Shown here piece after piece: positions 72-62,985 of a DNA stretch of 64,000 nucleotides. The notes beneath the pieces are model-generated. The model did no database searches. It saw nothing but the letters and a program-made list of their open reading frames with translations, and had not been told where the DNA came from. Position numbers and translations under genes: made by a program. Numbering within the stretch: position 1 is the stretch's first letter; every line of letters begins with the position of its first letter. Origin of the DNA: Eledone cirrhosa (lineage: Eukaryota); NCBI GenBank assembly GCA_964016885.1, contig OZ024746.1, positions 49,786,001 to 49,850,000 on the forward strand, read 5' to 3'.

Positions 72-272
72 GATAGAGTAAGACACGCTTCGCATCGGCT
101 CCGCTATTCCATCGGGATTTACCCTTACTATTGTAAGTACCGGATAAATTTTTTAGTGCAACACATTTGGAACACTAACCCCTGTTATTTAGGGAAACAT
201 TTTTGCATTTACCCCCTTTTTAGGGGGTAAAATAAATATCTATTTTTGCCGAAAAATTTCTTTCTTGGCAGC

Positions 273-2108
273 ATGGCGGAAAAGATGGCAGACATGTCTG
301 CCATTAGCTCTGCCACGCCCCCCAAGTCTGAAGAACAAAAAATAATTACAACAAAATTAGACATTGAAACAAACAAACAAAATGAAAAAACAAATGTTAA
401 GGAAAATGAGCAAACAGAAAACAAACAAACAGAAAATAATACAAATAACGACAGGGCAACTTTCGCCCAGAAAACAAAGCAATCCATTACATACACACCA
501 ATTGACCTAACTGCCGCCAGAGAAAAACTGGCCGAAGCAAAGAAACATATTGTTTTGGGGGAAAACGGAATGTTTTCCATTAACTCCCCCCCAGAATTCA
601 AGAAAGCCAGAGCAGAAAACACAGTTATATACAGAACTATACTAAACCAGTCAAGAAAGCCAGCACAGCCCAGCCAAATGGAAATAGAGTTAGTCCTAAA
701 AGACTATATGAAGAATATTCTCTTCATACGAAAGGACCGACTCTATGGCAGCATTTCGGTCCTAACAAGAGACAAAGAAACGGCGGTTCAGCTTTCCCTA
801 AGCCCACTCTCGTCGACAACATATAGCTTCTATCCCTCCTACATGGGTAGAAGAACTCAGAGAATAAAAGTAAAAACAATGCTGCCCACAATGGACTTCT
901 GGTGGGCTATTGCTGGCTTCATTGATATGGGCGAAGACACTATGCTGTCAATGGGGAAGGCAACTGGAGATGCGTTCCTGGGAATGGGCCTCGACATACT
1001 AGTCCAAATGAGGCCCGAAAGAATAGCACAAATCCCGGATCGCATCTGGCTGGATGACCTTACCCCAATAGACATAATTGTAGAGGGGAGAAGACCAGCA
1101 TGCTATTTATGCATGGAAAGGGGACACGTTAAGGCTAACTGCCCGAAACGTATCCCCCAAAAAGGACTATTGCCCACACCCACCACAAACAGTACACCAG
1201 CACCACCCACCTCCAAAAATACACTAATACCACACACAGCAAACAAAATACAGACACCACCAACCACAAACACAACACAAACATCACCACCACCAGCACC
1301 AAACACAAGCACGACACAAAAATCACCACCACCAACCACAACACAAACATCACCACCACCATTACCAACCACAAGCACGACACAAACATTACCACCACCA
1401 CCACCACAAAACCCATTCCAAACAAATAATAAAAAAAACAGTAACAAATCTACCCCTCCCGCAAAAAAAAAACAACCACACAACACGTCCCTCCCACCTA
1501 GCGCTGAAGAGTTTCCCCCAACTTCTGAAGAAGAAGGAGGAGAAGCCTTCAGACAAGTTAAAAGAAAAAAAAGAAAACACACACCCAGCACACCACAAAT
1601 AACCCACACACAAACACCAACTCCAATCAAAAACACCCCACCCTCAACAAACAAAAATAAATCTGCGCCTCCCCTCTCCGAAACATTGACAGCATCACAA
1701 AAAAAGACGTTGCAATACACATATATAAATAAAGAAAACAAAAAACTGGTTAAATTAATAAACAATAACCCTATGGTGCAGACCGAAGGGCCAAACTTTA
1801 TCTCAACAGAGAACTTCACCCATTTAAAAATGATAAAGGTCCCTCTGGACCTTTATCGTTCCTTAAAAGAACAATTTAGACGGGACGTGAGCCCCCCCTG
1901 TTTAAAACCGTTGAATCGCGTCCTCTTGAAAGATTTCCCCATAACCGCCCCTCTCCCTGACACAACTCCAAATACCCCAACCCCACCACACACGTGTACC
2001 CCCACACCACCACAAAACATCCCTCCACCCAACACACCTGATGCCATGGAAATTACGCAACCCGGAGAGGTAAGTGCTTTTCTTTCTTCACTTTCAACAC
2101 CAAAATAG
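273..2108 (+). CDS. Tx1 ORF1 (gag-like nucleic-acid binding protein with zinc knuckle and Pro/Thr-rich tail)
   Basis: Open frame 246-2108, first ATG at 273; motif CYLCMERGHVKANC; basic KRKKRK stretch. Confidence 0.85.
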   Translation: MAEKMADMSAISSATPPKSEEQKIITTKLDIETNKQNEKTNVKENEQTENKQTENNTNNDRATFAQKTKQSITYTPIDLTAAREKLAEAKKHIVLGENGMFSINSPPEFKKARAENTVIYRTILNQSRKPAQPSQMEIELVLKDYMKNILFIRKDRLYGSISVLTRDKETAVQLSLSPLSSTTYSFYPSYMGRRTQRIKVKTMLPTMDFWWAIAGFIDMGEDTMLSMGKATGDAFLGMGLDILVQMRPERIAQIPDRIWLDDLTPIDIIVEGRRPACYLCMERGHVKANCPKRIPQKGLLPTPTTNSTPAPPTSKNTLIPHTANKIQTPPTTNTTQTSPPPAPNTSTTQKSPPPTTTQTSPPPLPTTSTTQTLPPPPPQNPFQTNNKKNSNKSTPPAKKKQPHNTSLPPSAEEFPPTSEEEGGEAFRQVKRKKRKHTPSTPQITHTQTPTPIKNTPPSTNKNKSAPPLSETLTASQKKTLQYTYINKENKKLVKLINNNPMVQTEGPNFISTENFTHLKMIKVPLDLYRSLKEQFRRDVSPPCLKPLNRVLLKDFPITAPLPDTTPNTPTPPHTCTPTPPQNIPPPNTPDAMEITQPGEVSAFLSSLSTPK

Positions 2109-2113
2109 ATCAA

Positions 2114-5100
2114 TTGAGAGTTGGCTGTTTGAACGCGCGTGGCCTGAGCTCAGCTTGGAAGCAAGCAAAGCTTCTAAGTGACCTCAGGTCACAAAGTATA
2201 GATGTGATGGTTGTTTGCGAGAGTCGGATCAGCAGCGTGAGACAGCTGGCGCCCGCCTTCGATGACTTTGAGATGCACGCATCTCTCTGTCAACCCGGAG
2301 GCGGGGGGGGGAGTTGCCGTACTGCTGGATAAACGTCTGACTCTCGACGTACAGATTGTTCACTCGGACCCGGGGGGTCGATTACTGGTGCTGGACGTCG
2401 GAGGTGGTGAAGGCGGGGCTTTCAGACTGGTCGGTCTTTATGCTCCCTTCGGGGCGGAGAGAGCCGACTTCTTCCAACGTCTGGAGACTTTTCTAGGAAC
2501 GTCGCGTTCCCTGCTTTTAGTGGGGGACTGGAATGGAATCCTAGATGCGCGTTGGGACTATGCAGGGGCATGTCCCGATAGAGGGGGGTGTAGCAGCCTC
2601 AAGGGGTTACTCGATCGATTCGACCTGGTCGATAGATTTCGACTAGATTGTCCAACTGCGCCAACCTGGACCTGGGCAAACCGCAGTGGACAATCTAGAT
2701 CGTACCTAGATAGGTTTTTGGTTAGGAGTAAGGATAGGGACGTATTTAGTTGTCCAGAACTGATCATGGTTGGCTATTCAGATCACAAATTAGTGACCTG
2801 CGTGGTCAACCTTGATAGAACGCATAGACAGGGTCCCGGTTACTGGAAGATGAACTTGTCCTTACCGACAAAGAAAGATTACAGAAACCGGATTAGTAGC
2901 TTAGTTAAGATGCGGTTGACGGGAGCGATCGTCAACAGTAGGTGGTGGATATCTCTAAAGAGAGAGATTAGAGTAAGTTCGATAGGTTACAGTAAGGAAC
3001 TAGCGGCGAATAGAAATAGGAGGGAAAGGGAGTTAACAGATAAACTAGAAGAGGCGATTAGGAGCGGAGACGTAGCCAGAGTGTTAGCGACGAGAACGGC
3101 ATTGAGCCAGTTCTTTGACGCGAAGCACGAAGGCTGCGTTGTCCGAAGTAAAATACGTGCTTTAGGAAACGAGGGGACCAAAGCTGTTAGCTGGGCCCGC
3201 GTGACAGAAGCCAAGAGTGGGATTAAATCCACCATTCGGTCTTTGCGAGACCAGGATGGACGGGTGATCCTTGAACCTGAGCGAATGTGCGAGACCTTTC
3301 AAAGGCACTTTGCTCGACTGTTCGGAGGTGGCGGGGGGCCGGACGGGGATGTGGACTTCGGTCCATACCTCGACGGTCTACCGCGTCTTTCGAGCGGCGA
3401 AGCGGAGTGCTGCGAAGGGCCAATCACAGCCACTGAAATCGGGGAAGCGCTCAGCCAATGCAGCAGACGCAAATCCCCGGGTCTCGATGGTCTACCATAC
3501 GAACTTTATTTAGCTATGCCGGTCTTGTTCTCCGAACTCCTCGAGGCTGTCTATTGCAACTGGCAACAGAACGGGAGAATTCCCTGTTCTGTGACCAAGG
3601 GCGTGGTCACGCTAGTGAGGAAGGACGAGAGCAAGGGGGACGACTTAAGTAACTTTAGGCCCATAACTCTGCTGAATGCAGAGTTACAGATTTTGGCCAA
3701 GGTGTTGACGAAGAGGTTGGCGCTTGTGGTGGGTGGTTTGGTGGGAGACGCGCAGACATGCGCTATCCCGTCCAGGTCCATTCACGACAACCTCCACCTC
3801 ATGCGATACATCATAGAGAGGGTTGGCTACGAACCCGGCTTTGGTGGGGCCCTGATCAACTTGGATCAATCTAAGGCGTTCGATAGGGTCGACCATGGTT
3901 ACCTGGATGCGGTGCTAGCGGCGGCGGGCTTCGGACCCGTTTTCAGGGGCTGGATTTCTGCCATGCACAGTGGCAACATCTACTCTAGGATTAAAGTAAA
4001 CGGCTACCTCTCGGAGCCGTTTCAAATCACCCGATCCATCAGACAGGGGTGCCCCCTCTCCTCCCTTCTGTACGTATTGACTCTCGAGCCACTGCTGCGG
4101 AAGTTGGAGTTGCTGCGGGGCATACCCCTGGAACCGGGATTGCACAAAGCGGTCTCGGCCTATGCCGACGACGTAACAGTAATGGTGGCGGACGCCTCGG
4201 AAATCGGGGCGATCGCCACCCTACTGGAGGAATACGAAAGGCTGACGGGGGCTAAGCTGAACCAGGACAAGTCAGTCGGTTTGCAACTCGGAACGTGGAG
4301 GGGCAAACCGATGCCGTTAGACGGTGTCGTCGGGCGGTGGACGGAGGGCCCGGTGAAGCTGCTCGGGGTCTGGTTCGGACCGGACCTCCAGGTGGAGAAG
4401 AATTGGGGCGAGGTGACGAGCAGGGTGTTTGCGCTGACCCAGAAGTGGGCCAAGTGCAAACTATCACTGAAAGGTCGGGCGGAGGTGACGAACGCTTACA
4501 TAGCGTCCGTCATCTACTACCGCCTGACCGTCGTGCCTTGCCCCAAGGAAAAGCTCACCATCATGGAACGCATGCTCTTCCAGTTCCTCTGGAAGAAGCG
4601 GCCTCCCATGGTGAGGAGATCCATCTGCTGCCAGCACCCTTCGAAAGGAGGGCTGGGTATGCCGTGGCTGTTGATGCGTAGGCACGCATTGAGGCTACGG
4701 CATCTACAGGTATTCCTCAACGGTCAGCCGGTGTGGGCCCCGTTTGTGAGGCGAGCCTTCCCACAGCTCGTCTCGCTCACCGAACTGCAATCCTGGGTGA
4801 AGCAAAGACCGAGAAAACTGGGCAACTGGCACACTGAGTGTGCCCAGGCGCTCACGGCTATCTGGCAAGCGGACCCGACTGTCAGTGGAGAATCCACCTC
4901 GACATTCTATAGAGGGTTGGTGGCTAGCAGGGGCGACGACACCCTTGGAGAGTCGCTAGGCATGGAGGAGGACGAACTGGCCAGCCTGTTCGGTAGAACT
5001 TTCGGCCCGGGACCCATGGACAACTTCCAGAGGTCCCTAGCCTGGCAGTGTTACCGGGGGGCTCTGCCCGTTCGAGAAAAGCTCTACAGACACGGGCGCC

Positions 5101-5484
5101 CGGGCAGGGATCCCGCGAAAAAGATCTGTCCCAGATGCGTGCGCGACGAGGAAACCGTTGCGCATGCACTGGTACACTGCCCGGGCGTTGCCGATCTGTG
5201 GGGCTACGTCGAAGCCGCCTCCTCCCTTCAGAAATGAAGCAGAGGCGGTCTTTCTGTGCGTAATAGCCATGATGAAAGAGGTTGTGTGGTGGACGCGCCT
5301 GAAAGGTCTGAGGTCGGGTGACTTTCTCTCCGGCCATCACCTGGTTTACTTCTTCCGATACCACTTCGGAAGAAGAATCAGGATGGAGAGAGAAGTGCTT
5401 GGTCCCAGACAGTTTTATGAAAGGTGGGTGAAAGAAGCGAGAATGGCCCGTGTAAATGGGCCTTCTCTCTACATTGTTCTGTAG
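2114..5484 (+). pseudogene. Tx1 ORF2 (APE endonuclease + reverse transcriptase), two frameshifts
   Basis: LRVGCLNARGL, GDWN, SYLDRF, SDHK (APE); FRPITLLN, LDQSKAFDRV, IRQGCPLS, YADD (RT); CPRC..HALVHC. Extra G in G9 run 2303-2311; deletion near 5212 relative to the sister copy shifts the last exon-like piece to frame 5158-5484. Confidence 0.9.
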
Positions 5485-23151: not shown

Positions 23152-23187
<36 letters not shown>

Positions 23188-23307
23188 TATAGACATAGGA
23201 TATTCGAAAATATTCTGTATGTTTATAATAAACATTTTGAAGACCTAATCGCTATAGAATAGAATACGTCACGTATTACAATTAGATTCTCGATAAAAGC
23301 AAGGGAA

Positions 23308-23350
23308 GTAATCTACGCGTTTCATTCTCGTTAGAAATCATCAGGACTAC
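23308..23350 (-). ncRNA. Minimal type I HHR of the 310-bp unit (first of 8 minus-strand copies, every 310 bp to 25478-25520)
   Basis: Reverse complement of the 25860-25902 motif. Confidence 0.85.
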
Positions 23351-25859
23351 ATATCCAGTGCTTTTATCGAGAATGACACAGCTAGAGACTTATAGAATAC
23401 TTAGCTGTGTACAGGAACTGGTTTGAAAGAGCGGTTGCCGGTCCGGCAGAAATTAGAAATTGGAATAAATGCTCTGAAATAGCGATATATATGTGAATAT
23501 AGACATAGGATATTCGAAAATATTCTGTATGTTTATAATAAACATTTTGAAGACCTAATCGCTATAGAATAGAATACGTCACGTATTACAATTAGATTCT
23601 CGATAAAAGCAAGGGAAGTAATCTACGCGTTTCATTCTCGTTAGAAATCATCAGGACTACATATCCAGTGCTTTTATCGAGAATGACACAGCTAGAGACT
23701 TATAGAATACTTAGCTGTGTACAGGAACTGGTTTGAAAGAGCGGTTGCCGGTCCGGCAGAAATTAGAAATTGGAATAAATGCTCTGAAATAGCGATATAT
23801 ATGTGAATATAGACATAGGATATTCGAAAATATTCTGTATGTTTATAATAAACATTTTGAAGACCTAATCGCTATAGAATAGAATACGTCACGTATTACA
23901 ATTAGATTCTCGATAAAAGCAAGGGAAGTAATCTACGCGTTTCATTCTCGTTAGAAATCATCAGGACTACATATCCAGTGCTTTTATCGAGAATGACACA
24001 GCTAGAGACTTATAGAATACTTAGCTGTGTACAGGAACTGGTTTGAAAGAGCGGTTGCCGGTCCGGCAGAAATTAGAAATTGGAATAAATGCTCTGAAAT
24101 AGCGATATATATGTGAATATAGACATAGGATATTCGAAAATATTCTGTATGTTTATAATAAACATTTTGAAGACCTAATCGCTATAGAATAGAATACGTC
24201 ACGTATTACAATTAGATTCTCGATAAAAGCAAGGGAAGTAATCTACGCGTTTCATTCTCGTTAGAAATCATCAGGACTACATATCCAGTGCTTTTATCGA
24301 GAATGACACAGCTAGAGACTTATAGAATACTTAGCTGTGTACAGGAACTGGTTTGAAAGAGCGGTTGCCGGTCCGGCAGAAATTAGAAATTGGAATAAAT
24401 GCTCTGAAATAGCGATATATATGTGAATATAGACATAGGATATTCGAAAATATTCTGTATGTTTATAATAAACATTTTGAAGACCTAATCGCTATAGAAT
24501 AGAATACGTCACGTATTACAATTAGATTCTCGATAAAAGCAAGGGAAGTAATCTACGCGTTTCATTCTCGTTAGAAATCATCAGGACTACATATCCAGTG
24601 CTTTTATCGAGAATGACACAGCTAGAGACTTATAGAATACTTAGCTGTGTACAGGAACTGGTTTGAAAGAGCGGTTGCCGGTCCGGCAGAAATTAGAAAT
24701 TGGAATAAATGCTCTGAAATAGCGATATATATGTGAATATAGACATAGGATATTCGAAAATATTCTGTATGTTTATAATAAACATTTTGAAGACCTAATC
24801 GCTATAGAATAGAATACGTCACGTATTACAATTAGATTCTCGATAAAAGCAAGGGAAGTAATCTACGCGTTTCATTCTCGTTAGAAATCATCAGGACTAC
24901 ATATCCAGTGCTTTTATCGAGAATGACACAGCTAGAGACTTATAGAATACTTAGCTGTGTACAGGAACTGGTTTGAAAGAGCGGTTGCCGGTCCGGCAGA
25001 AATTAGAAATTGGAATAAATGCTCTGAAATAGCGATATATATGTGAATATAGACATAGGATATTCGAAAATATTCTGTATGTTTATAATAAACATTTTGA
25101 AGACCTAATCGCTATAGAATAGAATACGTCACGTATTACAATTAGATTCTCGATAAAAGCAAGGGAAGTAATCTACGCGTTTCATTCTCGTTAGAAATCA
25201 TCAGGACTACATATCCAGTGCTTTTATCGAGAATGACACAGCTAGAGACTTATAGAATACTTAGCTGTGTACAGGAACTGGTTTGAAAGAGCGGTTGCCG
25301 GTCCGGCAGAAATTAGAAATTGGAATAAATGCTCTGAAATAGCGATATATATGTGAATATAGACATAGGATATTCGAAAATATTCTGTATGTTTATAATA
25401 AACATTTTGAAGACCTAATCGCTATAGAATAGAATACGTCACGTATTACAATTAGATTCTCGATAAAAGCAAGGGAAGTAATCTACGCGTTTCATTCTCG
25501 TTAGAAATCATCAGGACTACATATCCAGTGCTTTTATCGAGAATGACACAGCTAGAGACTTATAGAATACGAGAATGAAACGCGTAGATTACTTCCCTTG
25601 CTTTTATCGAGAATCTAATTGTAATACGTGACGTATTCTATTCTATAGCGATTAGGTCTTCAAAATGTTTATTATAAACATACAGAATATTTTCGAATAT
25701 CCTATGTCTATATTCACATATATATCGCTATTTCAGAGCATTTATTCCAATTTCTAATTTCTGCCGGACCGGCAACCGCTCTTTCAAACCAGTTCCTGTA
25801 CACAGCTAAGTATTCTATAAGTCTCTAGCTGTGTCATTCTCGATAAAAGCACTGGATAT

Positions 25860-25902
25860 GTAGTCCTGATGATTTCTAACGAGAATGAAACGCGTAGATT
25901 AC
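25860..25902 (+). ncRNA. Minimal type I HHR of the 310-bp unit (first of 5 plus-strand copies: 25860, 26170, 26480, 26790, 27100)
   Basis: GUAGUC-CUGAUGA-UUUCU AACG AGAAU-GAAA-CGCG-UA/GAUUAC; predicted cleavage after 25896; closed by a 16-bp helix 25836-25851/25909-25924. Confidence 0.85.
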
Positions 25903-27295
25903 TTCCCTTGCTTTTATCGAGAATCTAATTGTAATACGTGACGTATTCTATTCTATAGCGATTAGGTCTTCAAAATGTTTATTATAAACATACAGAATAT
26001 TTTCGAATATCCTATGTCTATATTCACATATATATCGCTATTTCAGAGCATTTATTCCAATTTCTAATTTCTGCCGGACCGGCAACCGCTCTTTCAAACC
26101 AGTTCCTGTACACAGCTAAGTATTCTATAAGTCTCTAGCTGTGTCATTCTCGATAAAAGCACTGGATATGTAGTCCTGATGATTTCTAACGAGAATGAAA
26201 CGCGTAGATTACTTCCCTTGCTTTTATCGAGAATCTAATTGTAATACGTGACGTATTCTATTCTATAGCGATTAGGTCTTCAAAATGTTTATTATAAACA
26301 TACAGAATATTTTCGAATATCCTATGTCTATATTCACATATATATCGCTATTTCAGAGCATTTATTCCAATTTCTAATTTCTGCCGGACCGGCAACCGCT
26401 CTTTCAAACCAGTTCCTGTACACAGCTAAGTATTCTATAAGTCTCTAGCTGTGTCATTCTCGATAAAAGCACTGGATATGTAGTCCTGATGATTTCTAAC
26501 GAGAATGAAACGCGTAGATTACTTCCCTTGCTTTTATCGAGAATCTAATTGTAATACGTGACGTATTCTATTCTATAGCGATTAGGTCTTCAAAATGTTT
26601 ATTATAAACATACAGAATATTTTCGAATATCCTATGTCTATATTCACATATATATCGCTATTTCAGAGCATTTATTCCAATTTCTAATTTCTGCCGGACC
26701 GGCAACCGCTCTTTCAAACCAGTTCCTGTACACAGCTAAGTATTCTATAAGTCTCTAGCTGTGTCATTCTCGATAAAAGCACTGGATATGTAGTCCTGAT
26801 GATTTCTAACGAGAATGAAACGCGTAGATTACTTCCCTTGCTTTTATCGAGAATCTAATTGTAATACGTGACGTATTCTATTCTATAGCGATTAGGTCTT
26901 CAAAATGTTTATTATAAACATACAGAATATTTTCGAATATCCTATGTCTATATTCACATATATATCGCTATTTCAGAGCATTTATTCCAATTTCTAATTT
27001 CTGCCGGACCGGCAACCGCTCTTTCAAACCAGTTCCTGTACACAGCTAAGTATTCTATAAGTCTCTAGCTGTGTCATTCTCGATAAAAGCACTGGATATG
27101 TAGTCCTGATGATTTCTAACGAGAATGAAACGCGTAGATTACTTCCCTTGCTTTTATCGAGAATCTAATTGTAATACGTGACGTATTCTATTCTATAGCG
27201 ATTAGGTCTTCAAAATGTTTATTATAAACATACAGAATATTTTCGAATATCCTATGTCTATATTCACATATATATCGCTATTTCAGAGCATTTAT

Positions 27296-27301
<6 letters not shown>

Positions 27302-27339
<38 letters not shown>

Positions 27340-27378
27340 GTATATATATATATGTATATATATATATACATATATATG

Positions 27379-27427
<49 letters not shown>

Positions 27428-27462
27428 GTATATATATATGTATATATATATACATATATATG

Positions 27463-27513
<51 letters not shown>

Positions 27514-27552
27514 GTATATATATATATGTATATATATATATACATATATATG

Positions 27553-27591
<39 letters not shown>

Positions 27592-27632
27592 TTATGTATA
27601 TATATATGTATATATATATATACATATATATG

Positions 27633-27664
<32 letters not shown>

Positions 27665-27733
27665 TATATACATATATATGTATATGTATATGTATATATA
27701 TATATATTTATGTATATATATATGTATATATAT
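27302..27733. repeat. (TA)n-based microsatellite separating the two arrays
   Basis: Read directly. Confidence 0.95.
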
Positions 27734-28038
27734 ATAAATTGAAACAAAATGAAAACGAAATTTCATTTCTCACTCTTAGTATGGCACTTACTTAAATGTA
27801 AGTATGCATGTATACGTACATACATATATGTATACAGACGTACAGTAGCATGCACATATATATATATATATATACATATATACATACATATGCATACAGG
27901 TACACATACATATATGCACGTATCAGTTTAGCGGCGCTAACGTCGCTTTGTTCGTTTGTAAACAAACTGAACAGCCTGAATTTATGCCATACGGTGTTAA
28001 GGCAACCACGTCACCTTTTTGTTCAACACTGACACAGG

Positions 28039-28083
28039 AACGATGTACTAGTTTCAAGCTTGTTAGCTATCATCAGCACCGTT
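28039..28083 (-). ncRNA. Minimal type I HHR of the 468-bp unit (minus copies at 28039, 28507, 28975, 33412)
   Basis: Reverse complement of the 29462-29506 motif. Confidence 0.85.
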
Positions 28084-29461
28084 TACCCATCTGCCAGATA
28101 GTTGAACGTTCGAAAGTATATACTTTCCTTATGAAAATTAACGGCTGAGCAGCCTAATTTGCATATTGAGTGAGTTAAATCGGTCAGGCATACCGAAAAC
28201 GATAAATTGAAACAAAATGAAAACGAAATTTCATTTCTCACTCTTAGTATGGCACTTACTTAAATGTAAGTATGCATGTATACGTACATACATATATGTA
28301 TACAGACGTACAGTAGCATGCACATATATATATATATATATACATATATACATACATATGCATACAGGTACACATACATATATGCACGTATCAGTTTAGC
28401 GGCGCTAACGTCGCTTTGTTCGTTTGTAAACAAACTGAACAGCCTGAATTTATGCCATACGGTGTTAAGGCAACCACGTCACCTTTTTGTTCAACACTGA
28501 CACAGGAACGATGTACTAGTTTCAAGCTTGTTAGCTATCATCAGCACCGTTTACCCATCTGCCAGATAGTTGAACGTTCGAAAGTATATACTTTCCTTAT
28601 GAAAATTAACGGCTGAGCAGCCTAATTTGCATATTGAGTGAGTTAAATCGGTCAGGCATACCGAAAACGATAAATTGAAACAAAATGAAAACGAAATTTC
28701 ATTTCTCACTCTTAGTATGGCACTTACTTAAATGTAAGTATGCATGTATACGTACATACATATATGTATACAGACGTACAGTAGCATGCACATATATATA
28801 TATATATATACATATATACATACATATGCATACAGGTACACATACATATATGCACGTATCAGTTTAGCAGCGCTAACGTCGCTTTGTTCGTTTGTAAACA
28901 AACTGAACAGCCTGAATTTATGCCATACGGTGTTAAGGCAACCACGTCACCTTTTTGTTCAACACTGACACAGGAACGATGTACTAGTTTCAAGCTTGTT
29001 AGCTATCATCAGCACCGTTTACCCATCTGCCAGATAGTTGAACGTTCGAAAGTATATACTTTCCTTATGAAAATTAACGGCTGAGCAGCCTAATTTGCAT
29101 ATTGAGTGAGTTAAATCGGTCAGGCATACCGAAAACGATAAATTGAAACAAAATGAAAACGAAATTTCATTTCTCACTCTTAGTATGGCACTTACTTAAA
29201 TGTAAGTATGCATGTATACGTACATACATATATGTATACAGACGTACAGTAGCATGCACATATATATATATATATATACATATATACATACATATGCATA
29301 CAGGTACACATACATATATGCACGTATCAGTTTAGCGGCGCTAACGTCGCTTTGTTCGTTTGTAAACAAACTCACTCAATATGCAAATTAGGCTGCTCAG
29401 CCGTTAATTTTCATAAGGAAAGTATATACTTTCGAACGTTCAACTATCTGGCAGATGGGTA

Positions 29462-29506
29462 AACGGTGCTGATGATAGCTAACAAGCTTGAAACTAGTAC
29501 ATCGTT
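29462..29506 (+). ncRNA. Minimal type I HHR of the 468-bp unit (first of 8 plus copies, every 468 bp to 32738)
   Basis: AACGGUG-CUGAUGA-UAGCU AACA AGCUU-GAAA-CUAG-UA/CAUCGUU; predicted cleavage after 29499; stem I extends via CUGGCA/UGUCAG and GUUCAAC/GUUGAAC. Confidence 0.85.
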
Positions 29507-32500
29507 CCTGTGTCAGTGTTGAACAAAAAGGTGACGTGGTTGCCTTAACACCGTATGGCATAAATTCAGGCTGTTCAGTTTGTTTACAAACGAACAAAGC
29601 GACGTTAGCGCCGCTAAACTGATACGTGCATATATGTATGTGTACCTGTATGCATATGTATGTATATATGTATATATATATATATATATGTGCATGCTAC
29701 TGTACGTCTGTATACATATATGTATGTACGTATACATGCATACTTACATTTAAGTAAGTGCCATACTAAGAGTGAGAAATGAAATTTCGTTTTCATTTTG
29801 TTTCAATTTATCGTTTTCGGTATGCCTGACCGATTTAACTCACTCAATATGCAAATTAGGCTGCTCAGCCGTTAATTTTCATAAGGAAAGTATATACTTT
29901 CGAACGTTCAACTATCTGGCAGATGGGTAAACGGTGCTGATGATAGCTAACAAGCTTGAAACTAGTACATCGTTCCTGTGTCAGTGTTGAACAAAAAGGT
30001 GACGTGGTTGCCTTAACACCGTATGGCATAAATTCAGGCTGTTCAGTTTGTTTACAAACGAACAAAGCGACGTTAGCGCCGCTAAACTGATACGTGCATA
30101 TATGTATGTGTACCTGTATGCATATGTATGTATATATGTATATATATATATATATATGTGCATGCTACTGTACGTCTGTATACATATATGTATGTACGTA
30201 TACATGCATACTTACATTTAAGTAAGTGCCATACTAAGAGTGAGAAATGAAATTTCGTTTTCATTTTGTTTCAATTTATCGTTTTCGGTATGCCTGACCG
30301 ATTTAACTCACTCAATATGCAAATTAGGCTGCTCAGCCGTTAATTTTCATAAGGAAAGTATATACTTTCGAACGTTCAACTATCTGGCAGATGGGTAAAC
30401 GGTGCTGATGATAGCTAACAAGCTTGAAACTAGTACATCGTTCCTGTGTCAGTGTTGAACAAAAAGGTGACGTGGTTGCCTTAACACCGTATGGCATAAA
30501 TTCAGGCTGTTCAGTTTGTTTACAAACGAACAAAGCGACGTTAGCGCCGCTAAACTGATACGTGCATATATGTATGTGTACCTGTATGCATATGTATGTA
30601 TATATGTATATATATATATATATATGTGCATGCTACTGTACGTCTGTATACATATATGTATGTACGTATACATGCATACTTACATTTAAGTAAGTGCCAT
30701 ACTAAGAGTGAGAAATGAAATTTCGTTTTCATTTTGTTTCAATTTATCGTTTTCGGTATGCCTGACCGATTTAACTCACTCAATATGCAAATTAGGCTGC
30801 TCAGCCGTTAATTTTCATAAGGAAAGTATATACTTTCGAACGTTCAACTATCTGGCAGATGGGTAAACGGTGCTGATGATAGCTAACAAGCTTGAAACTA
30901 GTACATCGTTCCTGTGTCAGTGTTGAACAAAAAGGTGACGTGGTTGCCTTAACACCGTATGGCATAAATTCAGGCTGTTCAGTTTGTTTACAAACGAACA
31001 AAGCGACGTTAGCGCCGCTAAACTGATACGTGCATATATGTATGTGTACCTGTATGCATATGTATGTATATATGTATATATATATATATATATGTGCATG
31101 CTACTGTACGTCTGTATACATATATGTATGTACGTATACATGCATACTTACATTTAAGTAAGTGCCATACTAAGAGTGAGAAATGAAATTTCGTTTTCAT
31201 TTTGTTTCAATTTATCGTTTTCGGTATGCCTGACCGATTTAACTCACTCAATATGCAAATTAGGCTGCTCAGCCGTTAATTTTCATAAGGAAAGTATATA
31301 CTTTCGAACGTTCAACTATCTGGCAGATGGGTAAACGGTGCTGATGATAGCTAACAAGCTTGAAACTAGTACATCGTTCCTGTGTCAGTGTTGAACAAAA
31401 AGGTGACGTGGTTGCCTTAACACCGTATGGCATAAATTCAGGCTGTTCAGTTTGTTTACAAACGAACAAAGCGACGTTAGCGCCGCTAAACTGATACGTG
31501 CATATATGTATGTGTACCTGTATGCATATGTATGTATATATGTATATATATATATATATATGTGCATGCTACTGTACGTCTGTATACATATATGTATGTA
31601 CGTATACATGCATACTTACATTTAAGTAAGTGCCATACTAAGAGTGAGAAATGAAATTTCGTTTTCATTTTGTTTCAATTTATCGTTTTCGGTATGCCTG
31701 ACCGATTTAACTCACTCAATATGCAAATTAGGCTGCTCAGCCGTTAATTTTCATAAGGAAAGTATATACTTTCGAACGTTCAACTATCTGGCAGATGGGT
31801 AAACGGTGCTGATGATAGCTAACAAGCTTGAAACTAGTACATCGTTCCTGTGTCAGTGTTGAACAAAAAGGTGACGTGGTTGCCTTAACACCGTATGGCA
31901 TAAATTCAGGCTGTTCAGTTTGTTTACAAACGAACAAAGCGACGTTAGCGCCGCTAAACTGATACGTGCATATATGTATGTGTACCTGTATGCATATGTA
32001 TGTATATATGTATATATATATATATATATGTGCATGCTACTGTACGTCTGTATACATATATGTATGTACGTATACATGCATACTTACATTTAAGTAAGTG
32101 CCATACTAAGAGTGAGAAATGAAATTTCGTTTTCATTTTGTTTCAATTTATCGTTTTCGGTATGCCTGACCGATTTAACTCACTCAATATGCAAATTAGG
32201 CTGCTCAGCCGTTAATTTTCATAAGGAAAGTATATACTTTCGAACGTTCAACTATCTGGCAGATGGGTAAACGGTGCTGATGATAGCTAACAAGCTTGAA
32301 ACTAGTACATCGTTCCTGTGTCAGTGTTGAACAAAAAGGTGACGTGGTTGCCTTAACACCGTATGGCATAAATTCAGGCTGTTCAGTTTGTTTACAAACG
32401 AACAAAGCGACGTTAGCGCCGCTAAACTGATACGTGCATATATGTATGTGTACCTGTATGCATATGTATGTATATATGTATATATATATATATATATGTG

Positions 32501-33020
32501 CATGCTACTGTACGTCTGTATACATATATGTATGTACGTATACATGCATACTTACATTTAAGTAAGTGCCATACTAAGAGTGAGAAATGAAATTTCGTTT
32601 TCATTTTGTTTCAATTTATCGTTTTCGGTATGCCTGACCGATTTAACTCACTCAATATGCAAATTAGGCTGCTCAGCCGTTAATTTTCATAAGGAAAGTA
32701 TATACTTTCGAACGTTCAACTATCTGGCAGATGGGTAAACGGTGCTGATGATAGCTAACAAGCTTGAAACTAGTACATCGTTCCTGTGTCAGTGTTGAAC
32801 AAAAAGGTGACGTGGTTGCCTTAACACCGTATGGCATAAATTCAGGCTGTTCAGTTTGTTTACAAACGAACAAAGCGACGTTAGCGCCGCTAAACTGATA
32901 CGTGCATATATGTATGTGTACCTGTATGCATATGTATGTATATATGTATATATATATATATATATGTGCATGCTACTGTACGTCTGTATACATATATGTA
33001 TGTACGTATACATGCATACT

Positions 33021-33823
<803 letters not shown>

Positions 33824-36618: not shown

Positions 36619-36633
36619 TATATATATATATAT

Positions 36634-38804
36634 CGTTTCTGAATTTGTTTAGCAAGATTCTTTATCTGAAATCGTGTGTTGAAACCGATATTGTTATACT
36701 TTGGGAGGGTCATGTTGCCAATAAGAAACACACGCACCAGTTGTTTCACTTCAATTTATTATAATAAATTTATAATAAATTTATAAATTTATAAATTTCT
36801 GGTTGGTTGGTTCCACAACCAGATAGTTGTTTATATATAGTCATGGTTCTTTCGTCACACACTCTGTGACCTCTTCAGTGACTGGGGATTCCTTTCTTTG
36901 TTTCTGTGCCTTTCCTTTGTTCTGTCCTACGACATTTTGTTTCTGTGTGTGTCTTGTGTGCTCAGTCTGCGCATGCGCCACATCCGGGTGTCTGTGTGTG
37001 TTTATGTTCATTTATTTATTTGTTTATTTACATGTTACTGGTTGGTTGTTTGTTCTATGTGTGTGTTTTCATTTTGTCCTTAATTGTAAGTTGTGATGTT
37101 GCTGTTCCACTCATATTTTCTATTTAATTTTGGTTGTAATTCTTTTATGTTTATTGCCTCTGTAATTTGTCTAAACATTGCGTCTTTTCTGTTTGTAGAT
37201 TCTATTTTTATTTCTATGTTCTCTAATTTACCCTTGTGTTCTATTTTAGCATGTTGGTAGTGTACAGATGATTCTTTATTATCTTGAAGGTCTCGCCAGT
37301 GTTCATTTATCCGTTCCCCTACACTACGATCTGTCTCACCTATGTACACTATATTTTTGTCTCTACATTGTCCTTCAGTACATCTTATGCTATACACTAC
37401 ATTTCTAGTTTTACAGTTAATATGGGGGCTTATTTTACAGGTTATACATTTCTTATGTATCGATGAACATTACACTCTGGTATTTATTGCTATCATACCA
37501 TGAGTTTATTCTATTAGCCTTGTTCCTAGTTCTTTCTATTCTATTCCAAAATTTGCTCCTATACAAGGGGCAGGTCCCATTTATGTCATTATTTACCATT
37601 TTTTCCCATTTGGTTCTGGCTCCTCTATACACTCTGATTTTATCTCTCTGATTGTAGCCAGAGAACTGCATACGGTGGATGAAGTGTTGTATGTGTCTCT
37701 CTAGTTCTTCGGGGTTGCACATACGGGACACATTTCTCATCACCCGTACCAAATCCGCAATGAGTATGTTGATTTTGGTATGGTCCGAAACGGCCGAGTT
37801 TCGGTGGATCAGATGTTTGGAAGTCATGGGTTTGGCATAATGGGAATGGAGGATTTGTTTTTTGTTGTTAATGGTATCTAACCAGAGCTCTGTGTCTAGT
37901 ACAGGTAATCGATGGTTGGGGTGTTTACTTGGGTAGTCTATAGTAACTCTAATGCTCTGGTGGATGGAGTTTGCTATTTGCTGGATGCTTTCCATTGTGT
38001 TTTTCTCTAGTTCCTGACTGTTCTCTAGTGGGGGTGTCTTAACTACGATGTTTATATCATCTACGTAGCGGGAGTACATTATCAGGGTTAAGGGGTCTTC
38101 TAATTGTTCTTTAAGTTTAAGTTTAAGTCTACTGTCCCACCATACCATGAATAAGTTAGCTATGTCGCCTGCAATGCTAACGCAAATGGCTGCTCCTTCC
38201 TCTTGGGCATATGTTTTTCCATTAAATTTGAACATATGTTCCTTAAGGGTTAGTTTTATGCTGGCCCCTACCGCATGTGCAATCATTTTCTTCAGTTCAT
38301 CGTGGTTTTCGGGTGTCCGTATGGCTCTGGTCCACCCGTTCCATCTATCTGTGTGGGTTTTCTTGGCCATTGAGGTAATGGTAGGTGGTCTGCCTCTTGC
38401 TGGTCTTGTAGGGCACAGGTTGCTAAGGTCATATGTGTCTAGGTAATTATTACTATAGGTAAGCTTAAGTAGGAGTCCCAGCTCACTGGTATCAATCCCA
38501 CGGAACTCAACCTTGCTCTCACTGATCATTTCTACGCAATTCTCCACAGCAAAATCCACGTCAATATATGGATACAGGGACACAACATCCATACTGCCTA
38601 TTATGCAGTTTGTTAGGTCCCCAGATCGGTTACTCACGCCGATTCTGCTGAGGAGGTCCTCCGTGCTGTCACATACATCTGGGGACATTTCAATGATGGG
38701 GCGTATGATTAGAGAGAGGAAGTAGGACAGTCTGTAGTTACTAGCAATGTTAGCTCCACAGACTGGCCGTGTTGGTGGTCCCGCGACAGGGTCACAGCCC
38801 GTTT
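36634..38804 (-). mobile_element. 5'-truncated Penelope-like element (Nematis-like), RT + GIY-YIG + 3' UTR
   Basis: RPVCGA, SMDVVSLYP, AGDIANLFM, RYVDD (PLE RT); VVYSIRC..YIGET..RINEH..LNRKYEW (GIY-YIG); (TA)n both ends. Clade assignment is inference. Confidence 0.9.
37080..38804 (-). pseudogene. PLE RT/GIY-YIG ORF with ~145-bp frameshifting deletion near 37458
   Basis: ORFs 37453-38850 and 37080-37397; the missing linker is present in the copy at ~45198-45343. Confidence 0.85.
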
Positions 38805-38865
38805 TATATATATATATATACATATACATATATAAAGTATATATATACATGTATACATGTATACA

Positions 38866-38937
<72 letters not shown>

Positions 38938-39454
38938 ACCTATCTATCTATTTATCTATCGCACAGACACGCGAATACATGTAACTATAACTGTATATGC
39001 TTTAACATAAAACACATACACACAAAACCAAATCGTTTATCTACTCTGACGCTAGCCAGAAACTATCAAAATGTCGTCCAAACACCTAATCCTGGCGTCA
39101 CTTACCATATAAATCTCACTACACAAAAGATAGAGTAAAAAACAATACAAAATAAAACAATCCCTCCTATCAGTAACATAAACACACTTCTATGCATAAC
39201 AAGAGCGAAATCCATTACGGAGGCGACAGAAGGATGTCATGAGGCTCTAGTCGCCATATTATGTGACGTTTGGTTGTGCAAGGGGGAGAAACAAAATTCA
39301 ATACGTAGCTGGTAGAGGGATGACCCGAGTGCCAGAAATTATGGTCTTAAGTGTACTAAAGCACGAGATTCTTTACTCAAGTGTTACTGATATAGCTCTA
39401 AGCTTCAATAATAATAATTATAACAACAACACCAATAACAACAATAGTAATAAT

Positions 39455-44213: not shown

Positions 44214-44219
<6 letters not shown>
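44096..44219 (+). mobile_element. Short RTE-like LINE linker fragment
   Basis: Translates IRAKKEAYKAWL..RYKQA*RIAAEIVK. Confidence 0.4.
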
Positions 44220-44267
<48 letters not shown>

Positions 44268-44268
<1 letters not shown>

Positions 44269-46120
44269 CGTTTCTGAATTTGTTTAGCAAGATTCTTTAT
44301 CTGAAATCGTGTGTTGTAACCGATATTGTTATACTTTGGGAGGGTCATGTTGCCAATAAGAAACACACGCACCAGCTGCTTTCACTTCAATTTATTATAT
44401 ATTTATAAATTTATAAATTTACAAACTTATAAATTTCTGGTTGGTTGGTTGGTTCCACAACCAGATAGTTGTTTATATATAGTCATAGTCCTTTCGTCAC
44501 ACACTCTGTGACCTCTTCAGTGACTGGGGATTCCTTTCTTCGTTTCTGTGCCTTTCCTTTCTTCTATCCTACGCCATTTTGTTTCTGTGTGTGTGCTGTG
44601 TGCTCAGTTTGCACATGCGCCACATCCAGGTGTCTGTGTGTGTTTGTGTTCATTTATCTATTTGTTTATTTATTTATTTATTTATTGTTGGTTGGTTGTT
44701 TGTTCTATGTGTGTGTGTGTTTTCATTTTGTCCTGTGTGTGTTTGCATTTTGTGTGTGTTTTCATTTTGTCCTTAATTGTAAGTTGTTTGTTCTATGTGT
44801 GTGTGTGTTTTCATTTTGTCCTTAATTGTAAGTTGTGATGTTGCTGTTCCACTCATATTTTCTATTTAATTTTGGTTTTAATTCTTTTATGCTTACTGCC
44901 TCTGTAATTTGCCTAAACATTGCGTCTTTTCTGTGTGTGGATTCCATTTTTATTTCTATGCTCTCTAATCTACCCCTGTGTTCTATCTTAGCATGTTGGT
45001 AGAGCACAGATGATTCTTTATTATCTTGGAGGTCTCGCCAGTGTTCATTTATTCGTTCCCCTATACTACGAGCTGTCTCACCTATGTACACTATATTTTT
45101 GTTTCTACATTGTCCTTCAGTACATCTTATGCTATACACTACATTTCTAGTTTTACAGTTAATATGGGGGCTTATTTTACAGGTTATACATTTCTTATCT
45201 ATACATGAGGGTCTTTGGAACGGGTATGTCTTGCTAATAAGTGTTTTTACGGAGGTACCAGGTCTTTCTACTATCTTAATATTGAGATTATGTTTATTTA
45301 GGGCCCTTCTAAATTTGTAGGCTAGTTCGCCTCTAGGGGTTGTATTGATGAACATTACACTCTGGTATTTATTGCTATCATACCATGAGTTTATTCTATT
45401 GGCCTTGTTCCTAGTTCTTTCTATTCTATTCCAAAATTTGCTCCTATACAAGGGGCAGGTCCCATTTATGTCATTATTTACCATTTTTTCCCATTTGGTT
45501 CTGGCTCCTTTATACACTCTGATTCTATCTCTCTGATTGTAGCCAGAGAACTGCATACGGTGGATGAGGGTGTTGTATGTGTCTCTCTAGTTCTTCGGGG
45601 TTGCACATGCGGGACACATTTCTCATCACCCGTACCAAATAGGCAATCAGTATGTTGATTTTGGTATGGTCCGAATTGGCCGAGTTTCGGTGGATCAGAT
45701 GTTTGGAAGTCATGGGTTTGGCATAATGGGAATGGAGGATTTGTTTATGGTTGTTAATGGTATCTAACCAGAGCTCTGTGTCTAGTACAGGTAATCGATG
45801 GTTGGGGTGTCTACTTGGGTAGTCTATAGTAACTCTAATGCTCTGGTGGATGGAGTTTGCTATTTGCTGGATGCTTTCCATTGTGTTTTTCTCTAGTTCC
45901 TGACTGTTCTTTAGTGGGGGTGTCTTAACTACGATGTTTATATCCTCTACGTAGCGGGAGTACATTATCAGGGTTAAGCTGTCTTCTAATTGTTCATTAA
46001 GTTTTTGTTTAAGTCTACTGTCCCACCATACCATGAATAAGTTAGCTATGTCGCCTGCAATGCTAACACCAATGGTTGCTCCTTCCTCTTGGGCATATGT
46101 TTTACCATTAAATTTGAACA
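44268..46120 (-). mobile_element. Nematis-like PLE, left arm of a head-to-head inverted insertion (partial RT, GIY-YIG, 3' UTR with HHR at 44481-44525)
   Basis: ORFs 45525-46121 and 44822-45556 (frameshift ~45567); closely similar to 36634-38235. Confidence 0.92.
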
Positions 46121-47483
46121 AACTCGGCCATTTCGGACCATACCAAAATCAACATACTGATTGCGGATTTGGTACGGGTGATGAGAAATGTGTCCCGCAT
46201 GTGCAACCCCGAAGAACTAGAGAGACACATACAACACTTCATCCACCGTATGCAGTTCTCTGGCTACAATCAGTGAGATAGAATCAGAGTGTATAAAGGA
46301 GCCAGAACCAAATGGGAAAAAATGGTAAATAATGACATAAATGGGACCTGCCCCTTGTATAGGAGCAAATTTTGGAATAGAATAGAAAGAACTAGGAACA
46401 AGGCCAATAGAATAAACTCATGGTATGATAGCAATAAATACCAGAGTGTAATGTTCATCAATACAACCCCTAGAGGCGAACTAGCCTACAAATTTAGAAG
46501 GGCCCTAAATAAACATAATCTCAATATTAAGATAGTAGAAAGACCTGGTACCTCCGTAAAAACACTTATTAGCAAGACATACCCGTTCCAAAGACCCTCA
46601 TGTATAGATAAGAAATGTATAACCTGTAAAATAAGCCCCCATATTAACTGTAAAACTAGAAATGTAGTGTATAGCATAAGATGTACTGAAGGACAATGTA
46701 GAAACAAAAATATAGTGTACATAGGTGAGACAGCTCGTAGTATAGGGGAACGAATAAATGAACACTGGCGAGACCTCCAAGATAATAAAGAATCATCTGT
46801 GCTCTACCAACATGCTAAGATAGAACACAGGGGTAGATTAGAGAGCATAGAAATAAAAATGGAATCCACACACAGAAAAGACGCAATGTTTAGGCAAATT
46901 ACAGAGGCAGTAAGCATAAAAGAATTAAAACCAAAATTAAATAGAAAATATGAGTGGAACAGCAACATCACAACTTACAATTAAGGACAAAATGAAAACA
47001 CACACACACATAGAACAAACAACTTACAATTAAGGACAAAATGAAAACACACACAAAATGCAAACACACACAGGACAAAATGAAAACACACACACACATA
47101 GAACAAACAACCAACCAACAATAAATAAATAAATAAATAAACAAATAGATAAATGAACACAAACACACACAGACACCTGGATGTGGCGCATGTGCAAACT
47201 GAGCACACAGCACACACACAGAAACAAAATGGCGTAGGATAGAAGAAAGGAAAGGCACAGAAACGAAGAAAGGAATCCCCAGTCACTGAAGAGGTCACAG
47301 AGTGTGTGACGAAAGGACTATGACTATATATAAACAACTATCTGGTTGTGGAACCAACCAACCAACCAGAAATTTATAAGTTTGTAAATTTGTAAATTTA
47401 TAAATTTATAAATATATAATAAATTGAAGTGAAAGCGACTGGTGCGTGTGTTTCTTATTGGCAACATGACCCTCCCAAAGTAT

Positions 47484-47489
<6 letters not shown>
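46121..47489 (+). mobile_element. Nematis-like PLE, right arm (thumb, GIY-YIG, 3' UTR)
   Basis: Reverse complement of 44323-45687 with a few differences; ORF 46289-46984; ends in (TA)n ~55 nt short of the left-arm 3' end. Confidence 0.92.
47281..47325 (+). ncRNA. Minimal HHR in PLE 3' UTR (also 44481-44525 minus; 36839-36883 minus is mutated)
   Basis: AGUCA-CUGAAGA-G-GUCAC AGAGUGU GUGAC-GAAA-GGAC-UA/UGACU. Confidence 0.7.
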
Positions 47490-47554
<65 letters not shown>

Positions 47555-48118
47555 TGTATATATGCATATCCATTGATTGGTTAATTATTTATGTTTGTTT
47601 AATAACGTCTAGTCAAGATCTTTTCATTCGGAATGTGGAACGGAATTGATTTCCTTCGTTCACACTTTCAATTTGCGCACCAAAAACCGGGGGTTACTTC
47701 CCTTGTTTCAAATAACATGTGACAGTGAAACAATGAGGGCTGCCAATGGTAGCAGTTCAGCGTTACATTCCACACCGGCTTGAGGCATAGAATGAAATTT
47801 TCTGTTGATGACGTGAATCCTCTGTTCGATCATGGAATACCACAGGCCTACATATTACGTAATTTGGATGGATGATTTCGTTTTCATAGAAACCTATCGG
47901 ACGTATTGCAAAATATCGTTCGATATGTCCAGGTCAGTTGTCTAACCTGATTAGTCTTTTCGCTGTTTTTGGTATTGTGCAATTTTCAATTTGTCAAGCT
48001 CTCTAAACGTATGTTATTACTCTAAGAGCTACTACCTTATTGAGTGCTTTGCTGCTCATTCCTAATTGTAGGTCGTTAGCTTGGCCATAGCCAAAGCTTC
48101 GATTTTACTAAGCTTCCA

Positions 48119-61313: not shown

Positions 61314-61429
61314 TACATACACACATACATACATACACACATATATACACACACATACACACTTATATATGCATATAATTATTGGGGGGGGGGATTACAT
61401 TTATTAGTGGGAAATAATAAATATATATA

Positions 61430-61722
61430 AAAACAAATAACGAAACGAAATTAAATTTCGTTTCGTTTGTAACTCACTTTTGTATGACTGACGCTTAAAC
61501 AATTAAGCTATTCTGTATGTAAACACACAGACAAACCGGTTTTTAGAGTCATACTGGTTTTTGAGGAAACACCTTTCCTCTATTCTCCAGAAAGCCAGAC
61601 AAGGAATATTGAACTAGTTTCGATGTTGTTACATCTCATCAGCAATATTTACCTATCTTCCGGCCTTTCTAGAGAATCGTAACTTAATAAATCGTAACTT
61701 AATAAATCGTAACTTAATAAAT
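61430..61722 (-). mobile_element. Solo retrozyme-like monomer nested in the Naiad-like UTR, distantly related to the 468-bp unit
   Basis: Begins AAACAAATAACGAAACGAAATT..CTCACTTTTGTATG, like the 468 unit; carries an HHR; short TA runs at edges. Confidence 0.65.
61605..61649 (-). ncRNA. Canonical minimal type I HHR
   Basis: AAUAUUG-CUGAUGA-GAUGU AACA ACAUC-GAAA-CUAG-UU/CAAUAUU; closed by AUUCUCUAGAAAGGCCGGA/UCUGGCUUUCUGGAGAAU. Confidence 0.88.
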
Positions 61723-61774
61723 ATATATAGATTTCAAGGAACATAGAGTCATAACCTGAAGTTAAAGCATTATA

Positions 61775-62515
61775 TATGTTAACTTAATGGTATCAGTTTT
61801 AGGAAATGATATTTGTAAGAAGGAAAGCCAAATTATGTAGTTCATTAGTAGTAGAATATTAATTATAGGTTAACTAAATTAAAAATAGTTTATATATTAA
61901 TTTCTAAAGTGTATATTAATTAGGTTTTTAATATTTAAAGCAGAATTATGTAGTTCATCAGTAGTAGAATATTAATTATAGGTTAACTAAATTAAAAATA
62001 ATTATATATGTTTACTTAATGGTATCAGTTTTAGGAAATGATATTTGTAAGAAGGAAAGCCAAATTATGTAGTTCATCAGTAGTAGAATATTAATTATAG
62101 GTTAACTAAATTAAAAACAGTTTATATATTAATTTCTAAAGTGTATATTAATTAGGTTTTTAATATTTAAAGCAGAATTATGTAGTTCATCAGTAGTAGA
62201 ATATTAATTATAGGTTAACTAAATTAAAAATAATTATATATGTTTACTTAATGGTATCAGTTTTAGGAAATGATATTTGTAAGAAGGAAAGCCAAATTAT
62301 GTAGTTCATCAGTAGTAGAATATTAATTATAGATTAACTAAATTAAAAACAGTTTATATATTAATTTCTAAAGTGTATATTAATTAGGTTTATAATATTT
62401 AAAGCAGAATTATGTAATTCATCAGTAGTAGAATATTAATTATAGGTTAACTAAATTAAAAATAATTTATATATTAATTTCTAAAGTGTATATTAATTAG
62501 GTTTATAATATTTAA
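61775..62515. repeat. 232-bp (dimeric) tandem repeat in PLE 3' UTR, including duplicated ORF stop region
   Basis: AGGAAATGAT at 61801, 62033, 62265. Confidence 0.85.
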
Positions 62516-62897: not shown

Positions 62898-62985
62898 TAT
62901 ATATATATAGTAACTATATATATATAGTAATAATAATAAATTTGAAGACTAAAATCCAAAGAGGGTTCGATAATCTGTTATTTTA

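Follow-up and report, generated by a model that had tools for sequence, protein, structure and literature searches.

The two opposed 310-bp tandem arrays described here lie in a 64,000-nt stretch of Eledone cirrhosa DNA (contig OZ024746.1; called the window below), and together they are estimated to be one of roughly 2,000 recent insertions of the same element. The two-armed layout, in which one arm ends at a site A and the other at a site B, is a family-wide rule and the main signal of the locus, and it was absent from the earlier note on this DNA. It is very probable that the locus is a retrozyme with the insertion footprint of Penelope-like elements. The account we favour, and hold to be fairly probable, is a young non-coding retrozyme insertion, in which a Penelope-like reverse transcriptase/endonuclease likely opened a TA microsatellite and the copying of one small RNA, probably a 310-nt circle, was primed from either side of the break.

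The locus consists of two head-to-head 310-bp tandem arrays in opposite orientation between TA microsatellites. Unit positions are counted from 25897, the first base after the predicted cut, which is position 1. The parts of the locus are as follows.

23154..23183, no strand: left (TA)n target flank
23184..25570, minus strand: left arm, 7.70 identical 310-bp units with 8 cores, ribozyme sense on the minus strand; its RNA 3' end points outward, at unit position 130 (site A)
25569..25570: central head-to-head junction, a 2-nt microhomology joining unit position 224 to 293
25569..27301, plus strand: right arm, 5.59 identical units with 5 cores; RNA 3' end outward, at unit position 165 (site B)
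25897..26206, plus strand: a single monomer from predicted cut to predicted cut, the putative 310-nt RNA circle
27267..27301, plus strand: the 35-nt "tail" between sites A and B, at the right end only
27302..27736: right TA-rich microsatellite flank, common to the neighbouring 468-bp element

The units are 310 bp long with a GC content of about 35%, and they are 100% identical, both within each arm and between the arms. Both arms abut (TA)n directly, without LTRs; no ORF of 100 aa is listed inside either arm, and an RT and GIY-YIG ORF is absent from them. The earlier note had described a 310-bp array at 23184..27301, and it turned out that the array is present with every named motif but is actually made of two inverted arms. 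Its left end, which had been placed at the unit's own TA run, does meet (TA)n, but the join is at position 130, just before that run, and the (TA)n target replaces the unit's own TA run with one mismatch. The right arm was said to begin in the stem II loop (25569), and its start is indeed unit position 293, in loop II.

A GTGACGT motif and a TATA-like run are located at unit positions 43-49 and 86-92 (window 25939-25945 and 25982-25988), which are a possible internal promoter; GTGACGT is also found 33-39 nt after the cut in the 468-bp unit of the neighbouring element. Among the listed contigs of sequencing runs X1, X3, X4 and X5, none spans the central junction of the locus, and the gap there is uninformative. 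In runs X1 and X2, the unit is one self-closing 340-base contig each, and a tandem array would look alike.

Each unit contains one type I hammerhead, and 13 complete cores are present at the locus. One copy on the plus strand is laid out below.

25860..25902, plus strand: type I hammerhead with stem I, CUGAUGA, stem II (U.U at its base), GAAA and the ACGCGU helix III
25860-25865, GTAGTC; 25866-25872, CTGATGA; 25873-25886, stem II region; 25887-25890, GAAA
downstream parts, plus strand: CGCG, TA, predicted cut after 25896, and GATTAC at 25897-25902
25836..25924, plus strand: extended stem I, a 3-bp helix past an internal loop and then a 16-bp helix that pairs 25836-25851 with 25909-25924

The motifs that had been named for the ribozyme (GUAGUC, CUGAUGA, stem II, GAAA, CGCG and UA/GAUUAC) are all at the positions given for them, and the perfect 16-bp helix does extend stem I, with a mean pair probability of 0.97 in a predicted circular fold. 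Stem I has 6 bp, stem II has 4-5 bp with a U.U pair at its base and a 4-nt loop, and helix III is the palindromic ACGCGU with 1-2 bp. In the available text of PMC4209133, the canonical hammerhead is described with 6 bp in helix I, 4 bp in helix II, and 1-2 bp with a palindromic loop in helix III, and the minimal hammerhead of Penelope repeats with a helix II of 7-8 bp, a helix I of 4-5 bp and a poorly defined loop 1. Compared with this minimal form, the unit has a helix II of 4-5 bp and a helix I of 6 bp with a conserved extension; the term "minimal" used in the earlier note is therefore replaced, as the anatomy matches the canonical type I of that source.

A search of one unit against Rfam gave no hammerhead match at E up to 10, and the assignment rests on motif anatomy and covariation, not on an Rfam library match. 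Twelve copies drawn from three families of this genome were aligned; 96.3% of the cells in the alignment pair, and 11 of 16 named pairs change on both sides, the three families being three lineages with few independent events. The covariation score of this alignment was not reached by any shuffled or slid structure. Over the 97 analysed loci, 5 of 10,688 core letters differ from the majority. The commonest variants are at N7, at 10.1 (where an A-U pair is restored) and in loop II. Judged by these features, the putative ribozyme is a canonical type I hammerhead.

The proposal that cleavage is dimeric, through the palindromic ACGCGU stem III, is probable, as predicted folding energies favour the dimer. 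Closing helix III within a monomer is predicted to cost +6.0 kcal/mol, and an ACGCGU duplex to yield -7.5; a nested double hammerhead (-122.6 kcal/mol) is predicted to be 7.7 better than two monomer folds (-114.9), and the predicted free fold (-128.3 kcal/mol) is lower than the nested double hammerhead. In the predicted circular fold, stem I has a probability of 0.86-1.0 and stem II only about 0.14, so that the active fold would not be the lowest-energy fold. The hammerhead probably needs a dimer to cleave, and a double hammerhead would free one monomer with its ends already paired.

In the 3.0 Gb of genome searched, the exact 43-nt core has 4,033 matches against 0 for the reversed control, so the array motif is not due to chance. 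Genome-wide, exact (TA)n junctions number 1,208 at unit position 130 (some of them internal variants) and 1,022 at position 165, and a rough mark-recapture estimate, based on hand-tallied counts over the initial 258.6 Mb of contig C1, puts the number of insertions at about 2,100. We analysed 97 insertions, nearly all from contig C1 and not a random genome sample, including 87 complete two-armed insertions, 1 two-armed insertion leaving the fetched DNA and 9 that are one-armed or cut. Among these 9, one lies at an assembly gap, one is too long and one has a second arm below the 70-bp cut-off. Besides, a more diverged 312-bp subfamily of the same element was seen (L227 and L230), as well as older non-coding relatives (L115-L144), which hold the unit's 60-170 end module with different and often decayed hammerheads.

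For all of the complete insertions (87 of 87), the minus arm is on the left and the plus arm on the right, and thus the RNA-sense 3' ends point outward into (TA)n. Every one of them (87 of 87) has one A-side end and one B end, where 27 were fetched as known A/B loci and the remaining 60 had been picked without regard to at least one of their ends, 13 of these without regard to either. Site A covers unit positions 128-139 (about 114 in L031) and site B covers 163-172, with modal ends at 130 and 165, about 35 nt apart. When simple pairs were formed by coordinates alone, with 85 single and 7 complex clusters set aside, 36 of 37 were A/B, one was A/A and none was B/B; the lone A/A pair (L049) turned out to be B/A on inspection. 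The B arms are longer (median 4.8 vs 3.3 units, p 0.015), and the homology to (TA)n is about 8 nt at site A and only 2-3 nt at site B. Direct matches of 12-45 nt occur in some imperfect flanks (L031, L036, L049, L053 and L205) and are inseparable from the microsatellite periodicity.

Where the two arms meet, the position is free. The start of the right arm in the stem II loop had been ascribed to a structure-induced stop of the RT, which the family contradicts: the 144 inner ends of 72 mappable junctions are uniform over the unit (chi-square p 0.86), and 6 of 144 fall in stem/loop II vs 6.5 expected. The cut site shows no enrichment either (3 of 144 vs 3.3 expected), and 22 of 144 inner ends are in the arms of the 16-bp helix vs 14.9 expected. 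Of these junctions, 49 are clean and 23 contain filler, and microhomology of at least 2 nt is present in 31 of the 49 clean ones, compared with 18.5% by chance. Such junctions are consistent with two cDNAs having been end-joined and do not fit a structural stop.

Both arms share the haplotype of their locus, with 32 haplotypes over the 97 loci, which indicates one template for the two arms. To find what this template was, sample-private fixed variants are informative, and 4 of 16 (216G, 232C, 158G and 210A) were searched genome-wide. 216G is present throughout L193 (18 units) and 232C throughout L214 (8 units); elsewhere each turns up only in single or scattered units, and neither fills another array in the assembly. 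158G fills three arrays on two backgrounds, and a possible source array exists for it, while 210A is a widespread subfamily marker with 325 matches. Two of the four tested variants are thus unique, and a source array could be missing from the haploid assembly. A variant that fills both arms without a source array indicates that one unit was copied many times during insertion, as a circle provides. Repeated jumping between linear monomers is disfavoured, because the approximately 900 crossings of the cut site are all clean and without scars. On balance, a monomer circle is the more credible main template, and we give this good but not strong confidence.

The same two-ended Penelope insertion might have used an uncut linear multimer from an existing arm, with both RTs starting in one unit and running toward the RNA 5' end, and with the array length restored by DNA-level duplication and not by rolling. 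Three loci speak for this. In L187, L215 and L082, non-fixed variants are shared in register from the outer ends of both arms: the outer two units of both arms of L187 have one haplotype and the inner units another, while L215 and L082 each have one variant in the same unit of both arms. Such sharing favours a multi-unit template at these loci, since a single monomer circle cannot give it. It follows that one multi-unit template can serve both arms, or that the arms can switch in step, and these loci are the strongest evidence for an origin of the two arms in one complex. Higher-order periods in L053, L054, L068, L211 and L223 likewise show DNA-level growth of long arms, and according to the available texts, uncut RNA was the main in vitro substrate of a Penelope enzyme (PMC11167929) and multimeric RNAs are present in axolotl (PMC7229834). 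However, 216G and 232C would need a single-unit bottleneck and then amplification in the insertion itself. In-register sharing is also rare, with 3 events against 77 discordant cells, and about 32 shared events are expected for multimer templates with an average load of sporadic variants, although this expectation assumes the average load in source arrays, yet 37 of 97 loci are fully uniform and carry no variants. We consider the linear multimer unlikely as the general template, and it likely explains a minority of loci.

The fixed variants also differ from the sporadic ones in spectrum. A>G makes up 11 of 33 fixed changes vs 7 of 93 sporadic ones (p 0.0008), and among fixed variants A>G and T>C stand at 11 to 6 (p 0.14). 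Fixation of 276G, a stem I variant in a UAG context, is seen at 8 loci that represent 4 backgrounds with markers less than about 20 nt away. ADAR prefers the UAG context, and A-to-I editing of the template RNA is no more than suggested by this spectrum. L058 (contig C1 near 61.29 Mb) has 276A in four outer B-arm units and 276G in two inner B-arm units and all seven A-arm units.

The favoured circle-based mechanism may be put together as follows. An arm would be transcribed outward into a multimer, from which paired hammerheads are predicted to excise monomers with ends held by stem I and the 16-bp helix, and a host ligase may close these monomers, by analogy with PMC7229834 as far as its available text goes. 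An enzyme, likely a dimer, would then begin the two cDNAs at different sites, one at A and one at B, with about 35 nt between them. Each cDNA, presumably by rolling, runs round the template for the observed lengths, which range from a fraction of a unit to about 30 units. The two cDNA ends would be joined at short microhomology, which the junctions place anywhere in the unit, and some long arms may later grow by DNA duplication, as the higher-order periods suggest.

Two further explanations do without such an RNA. In one of them, the element is DNA only: a satellite or a small circle of DNA is amplified and inserted at breaks, or the element is of the foldback type, and the hammerhead is simply carried along. 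Private variants would reach every unit from a DNA circle too, the long arms do show DNA-level duplication, and no fixed variants occur at 12 core positions, which is not significant alone (about 1.3 expected). But this leaves unexplained why ribozyme-sense 3' ends are always outward, at two fixed sites with one each per insertion, and why the same layout is found in coding Penelope-like copies; moreover, the arms are not mirror images about the centre, with unequal lengths and phases, and the helices covary across the three families. We regard a DNA-only origin as very unlikely. An artefact of assembly or library, namely a fold-back chimera of a perfect repeat, would suit the complete identity of the units at this locus, but 87 loci, including this one, differ in junctions, arm lengths and haplotypes and yet share patterned outer ends, and their arms are not mirror copies, which makes it the least credible explanation.

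The link to Penelope-like elements comes from the form of the insertions. These elements are described as inserting with an inverted 5'-truncated copy, often with a 30-40 bp tail at one end, into (TA)n targets, by a mechanism that the available text of PMC8557442 calls unresolved. The 310-bp family is like them in all three respects: 88 of 97 insertions are two-armed, the modal ends 130 and 165 occur one per side in 87 of 87, giving a one-sided tail, and the targets are (TA)n. It differs from them in having no ORF and in that both arms are many-fold tandem copies of the 310-nt unit. For Poseidon of Anolis, PMC11167929 (available text) reports that in vitro both strands are cut and extended, that two adjacent internal RNA start sites bound the tail, that an enzyme dimer is predicted, and that insertion was not blocked by ribozyme mutations, which counts against the circle account. 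The 310-bp element resembles Poseidon in its two adjacent internal start sites with a hammerhead upstream of them; no strand difference in the start site was reported for Poseidon in vitro, whereas the 310-bp insertions use each site once.

Coding copies with such a layout are present in this genome. The Penelope-like copy at window 44218-47564 has two arms in (TA)n and a one-sided tail of 58 nt, and its GIY-YIG match (E 0.00026) is below the cut-off of Pfam. The repeat of this element holds a different hammerhead, and a second coding Penelope-like copy was seen at window 36619-38943. In the Hydra-type loci L107 and L149, opposite arms end about 140 nt apart. An abundant family has open frames of 830-834 aa with Hydra-clade motifs (L145-L149) and 61,626 first-look candidates, and this Hydra-type family looks very abundant and recently active.

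The Penelope family that drives the 310-bp element was not found by these searches. The unit and the Hydra-type repeat have no significant alignment (score 54, with shuffles up to 57), and in 1.14 Mb of fetched DNA, none of the Hydra-type ORF starts detected is preceded by the unit's end module. A coding copy that carries the end module was absent from 30 loci read from 4,500 exact matches of a 21-nt probe, and from 30 loci read from the 27,663 matches of the closest core. The best lead is another, frameshifted Hydra-type ORF (L170/L224), the second of its type, which has a sense ribozyme with a very similar core and different ends and tail. The hammerhead with 27,663 matches (L151-L180 and L224) sits upstream of this second ORF, and many copies at these loci are short and two-armed, with ends 5-29 or 85-99 nt past the cut. 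An antisense hammerhead lying upstream of the Hydra ORF was rejected as part of that element, being found only in L147, and the hammerhead at 61642 was rejected as part of the Hydra-type element 62496-62948, being absent from L086-L114.

The window holds several neighbouring elements. A second two-armed hammerhead array lies in the same microsatellite at 27734-33022, with a 468-bp unit and an ACUAGU helix III, and ends at unit positions 312 and 247, 65 nt apart; a diverged partial copy of this element is at 33135-33769. On the minus strand at 61578-61676 (within 61400-62948), a hammerhead of a roughly 469-bp family is located in the 3' region of a Hydra-type Penelope element, and it is closed by a helix similar to the 16-bp one, in which the changes compensate each other. 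An Rfam search of the whole window gave one weak HH9 match, at 61589-61660. A two-ORF non-LTR retrotransposon with endonuclease, RT and zf-RVT domains occupies 231-5237.

Non-LTR retrozymes were defined in coral, mussel and axolotl, with circles and dimer cleavage shown, and tandem cDNA made from the circles by Penelope enzymes was proposed there (PMC7229834, available text). A vertebrate survey (bioRxiv 10.64898/2026.07.22.740005, available text) linked retrozymes to Penelope repeats by phylogeny and found that only 1 of 9 predicted dimers cleaved, which likewise counts against the circle account here, and both sources propose Penelope-like elements as the retrozyme mobiliser. The insertions studied here have the marks of this class: tandem units within 150-450 bp, non-coding and low in GC, a hammerhead per unit, no LTRs and dispersed insertions. 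They resemble the animal non-LTR retrozymes of those texts in their ~300-bp non-coding tandem units with low GC and a canonical type I hammerhead each; two axolotl ribozymes share details with them, HHR_Amex1 the one-pair helix III with a palindromic tetraloop and HHR_Amex2 the U.U pair at the foot of stem II (PMC7229834). Unlike those, for which plain tandem arrays are described, nearly every insertion here is two-armed with fixed A/B ends in (TA)n; and expression and cleavage, shown for the animal retrozymes, are proposed for the 310-bp element.

The words "inverted" and "head-to-head" are absent from the main text of PMC7229834, and the two-armed layout was not seen in the available text of bioRxiv 10.64898/2026.07.22.740005. 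In the searched literature, with most subscription papers outside its scope, we found no description of two-armed retrozyme insertions. The element is very probably an animal non-LTR retrozyme, a known kind, with a two-armed layout for which we found no retrozyme precedent in these texts. New here are the test for uniformity of the junctions, the genome-wide checks of whether variants are unique, and the loci with sharing in register. In the twin priming of L1, two nicks prime on one RNA, and the inverted 5' segment is joined at a microhomology. The RNA of L1 is linear, with priming at its poly(A) end and at an internal site that varies. Unlike this, the 310-bp element has both sites fixed and internal, and both products are tandem.

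How retrozymes spread is stated as open in the available texts of PMC7229834 and bioRxiv 10.64898/2026.07.22.740005, and the origin of tandem and inverted Penelope insertions with a one-sided tail is stated as open in that of PMC8557442; the 310-bp family links these two questions. It offers about 2,000 near-identical recent events, a strict rule of one A and one B end, and variants telling a circle from a linear template, and it supplies the existing in vitro Penelope assay with a defined 310-nt substrate and two precise start sites. Tentatively, with slightly less than even confidence, the family may be read as the direct fossil record of a ribozyme-made circle rolled simultaneously by both halves of a Penelope dimer, each from its own start site, with A-to-I edits of that one RNA copied into all of its DNA units. 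If this reading is true, L058 would be an edit or a template change in mid-synthesis. If the circles are confirmed, the family would show that rolling-circle reverse transcription, coupled to integration into the genome at two ends, occurs in nature.
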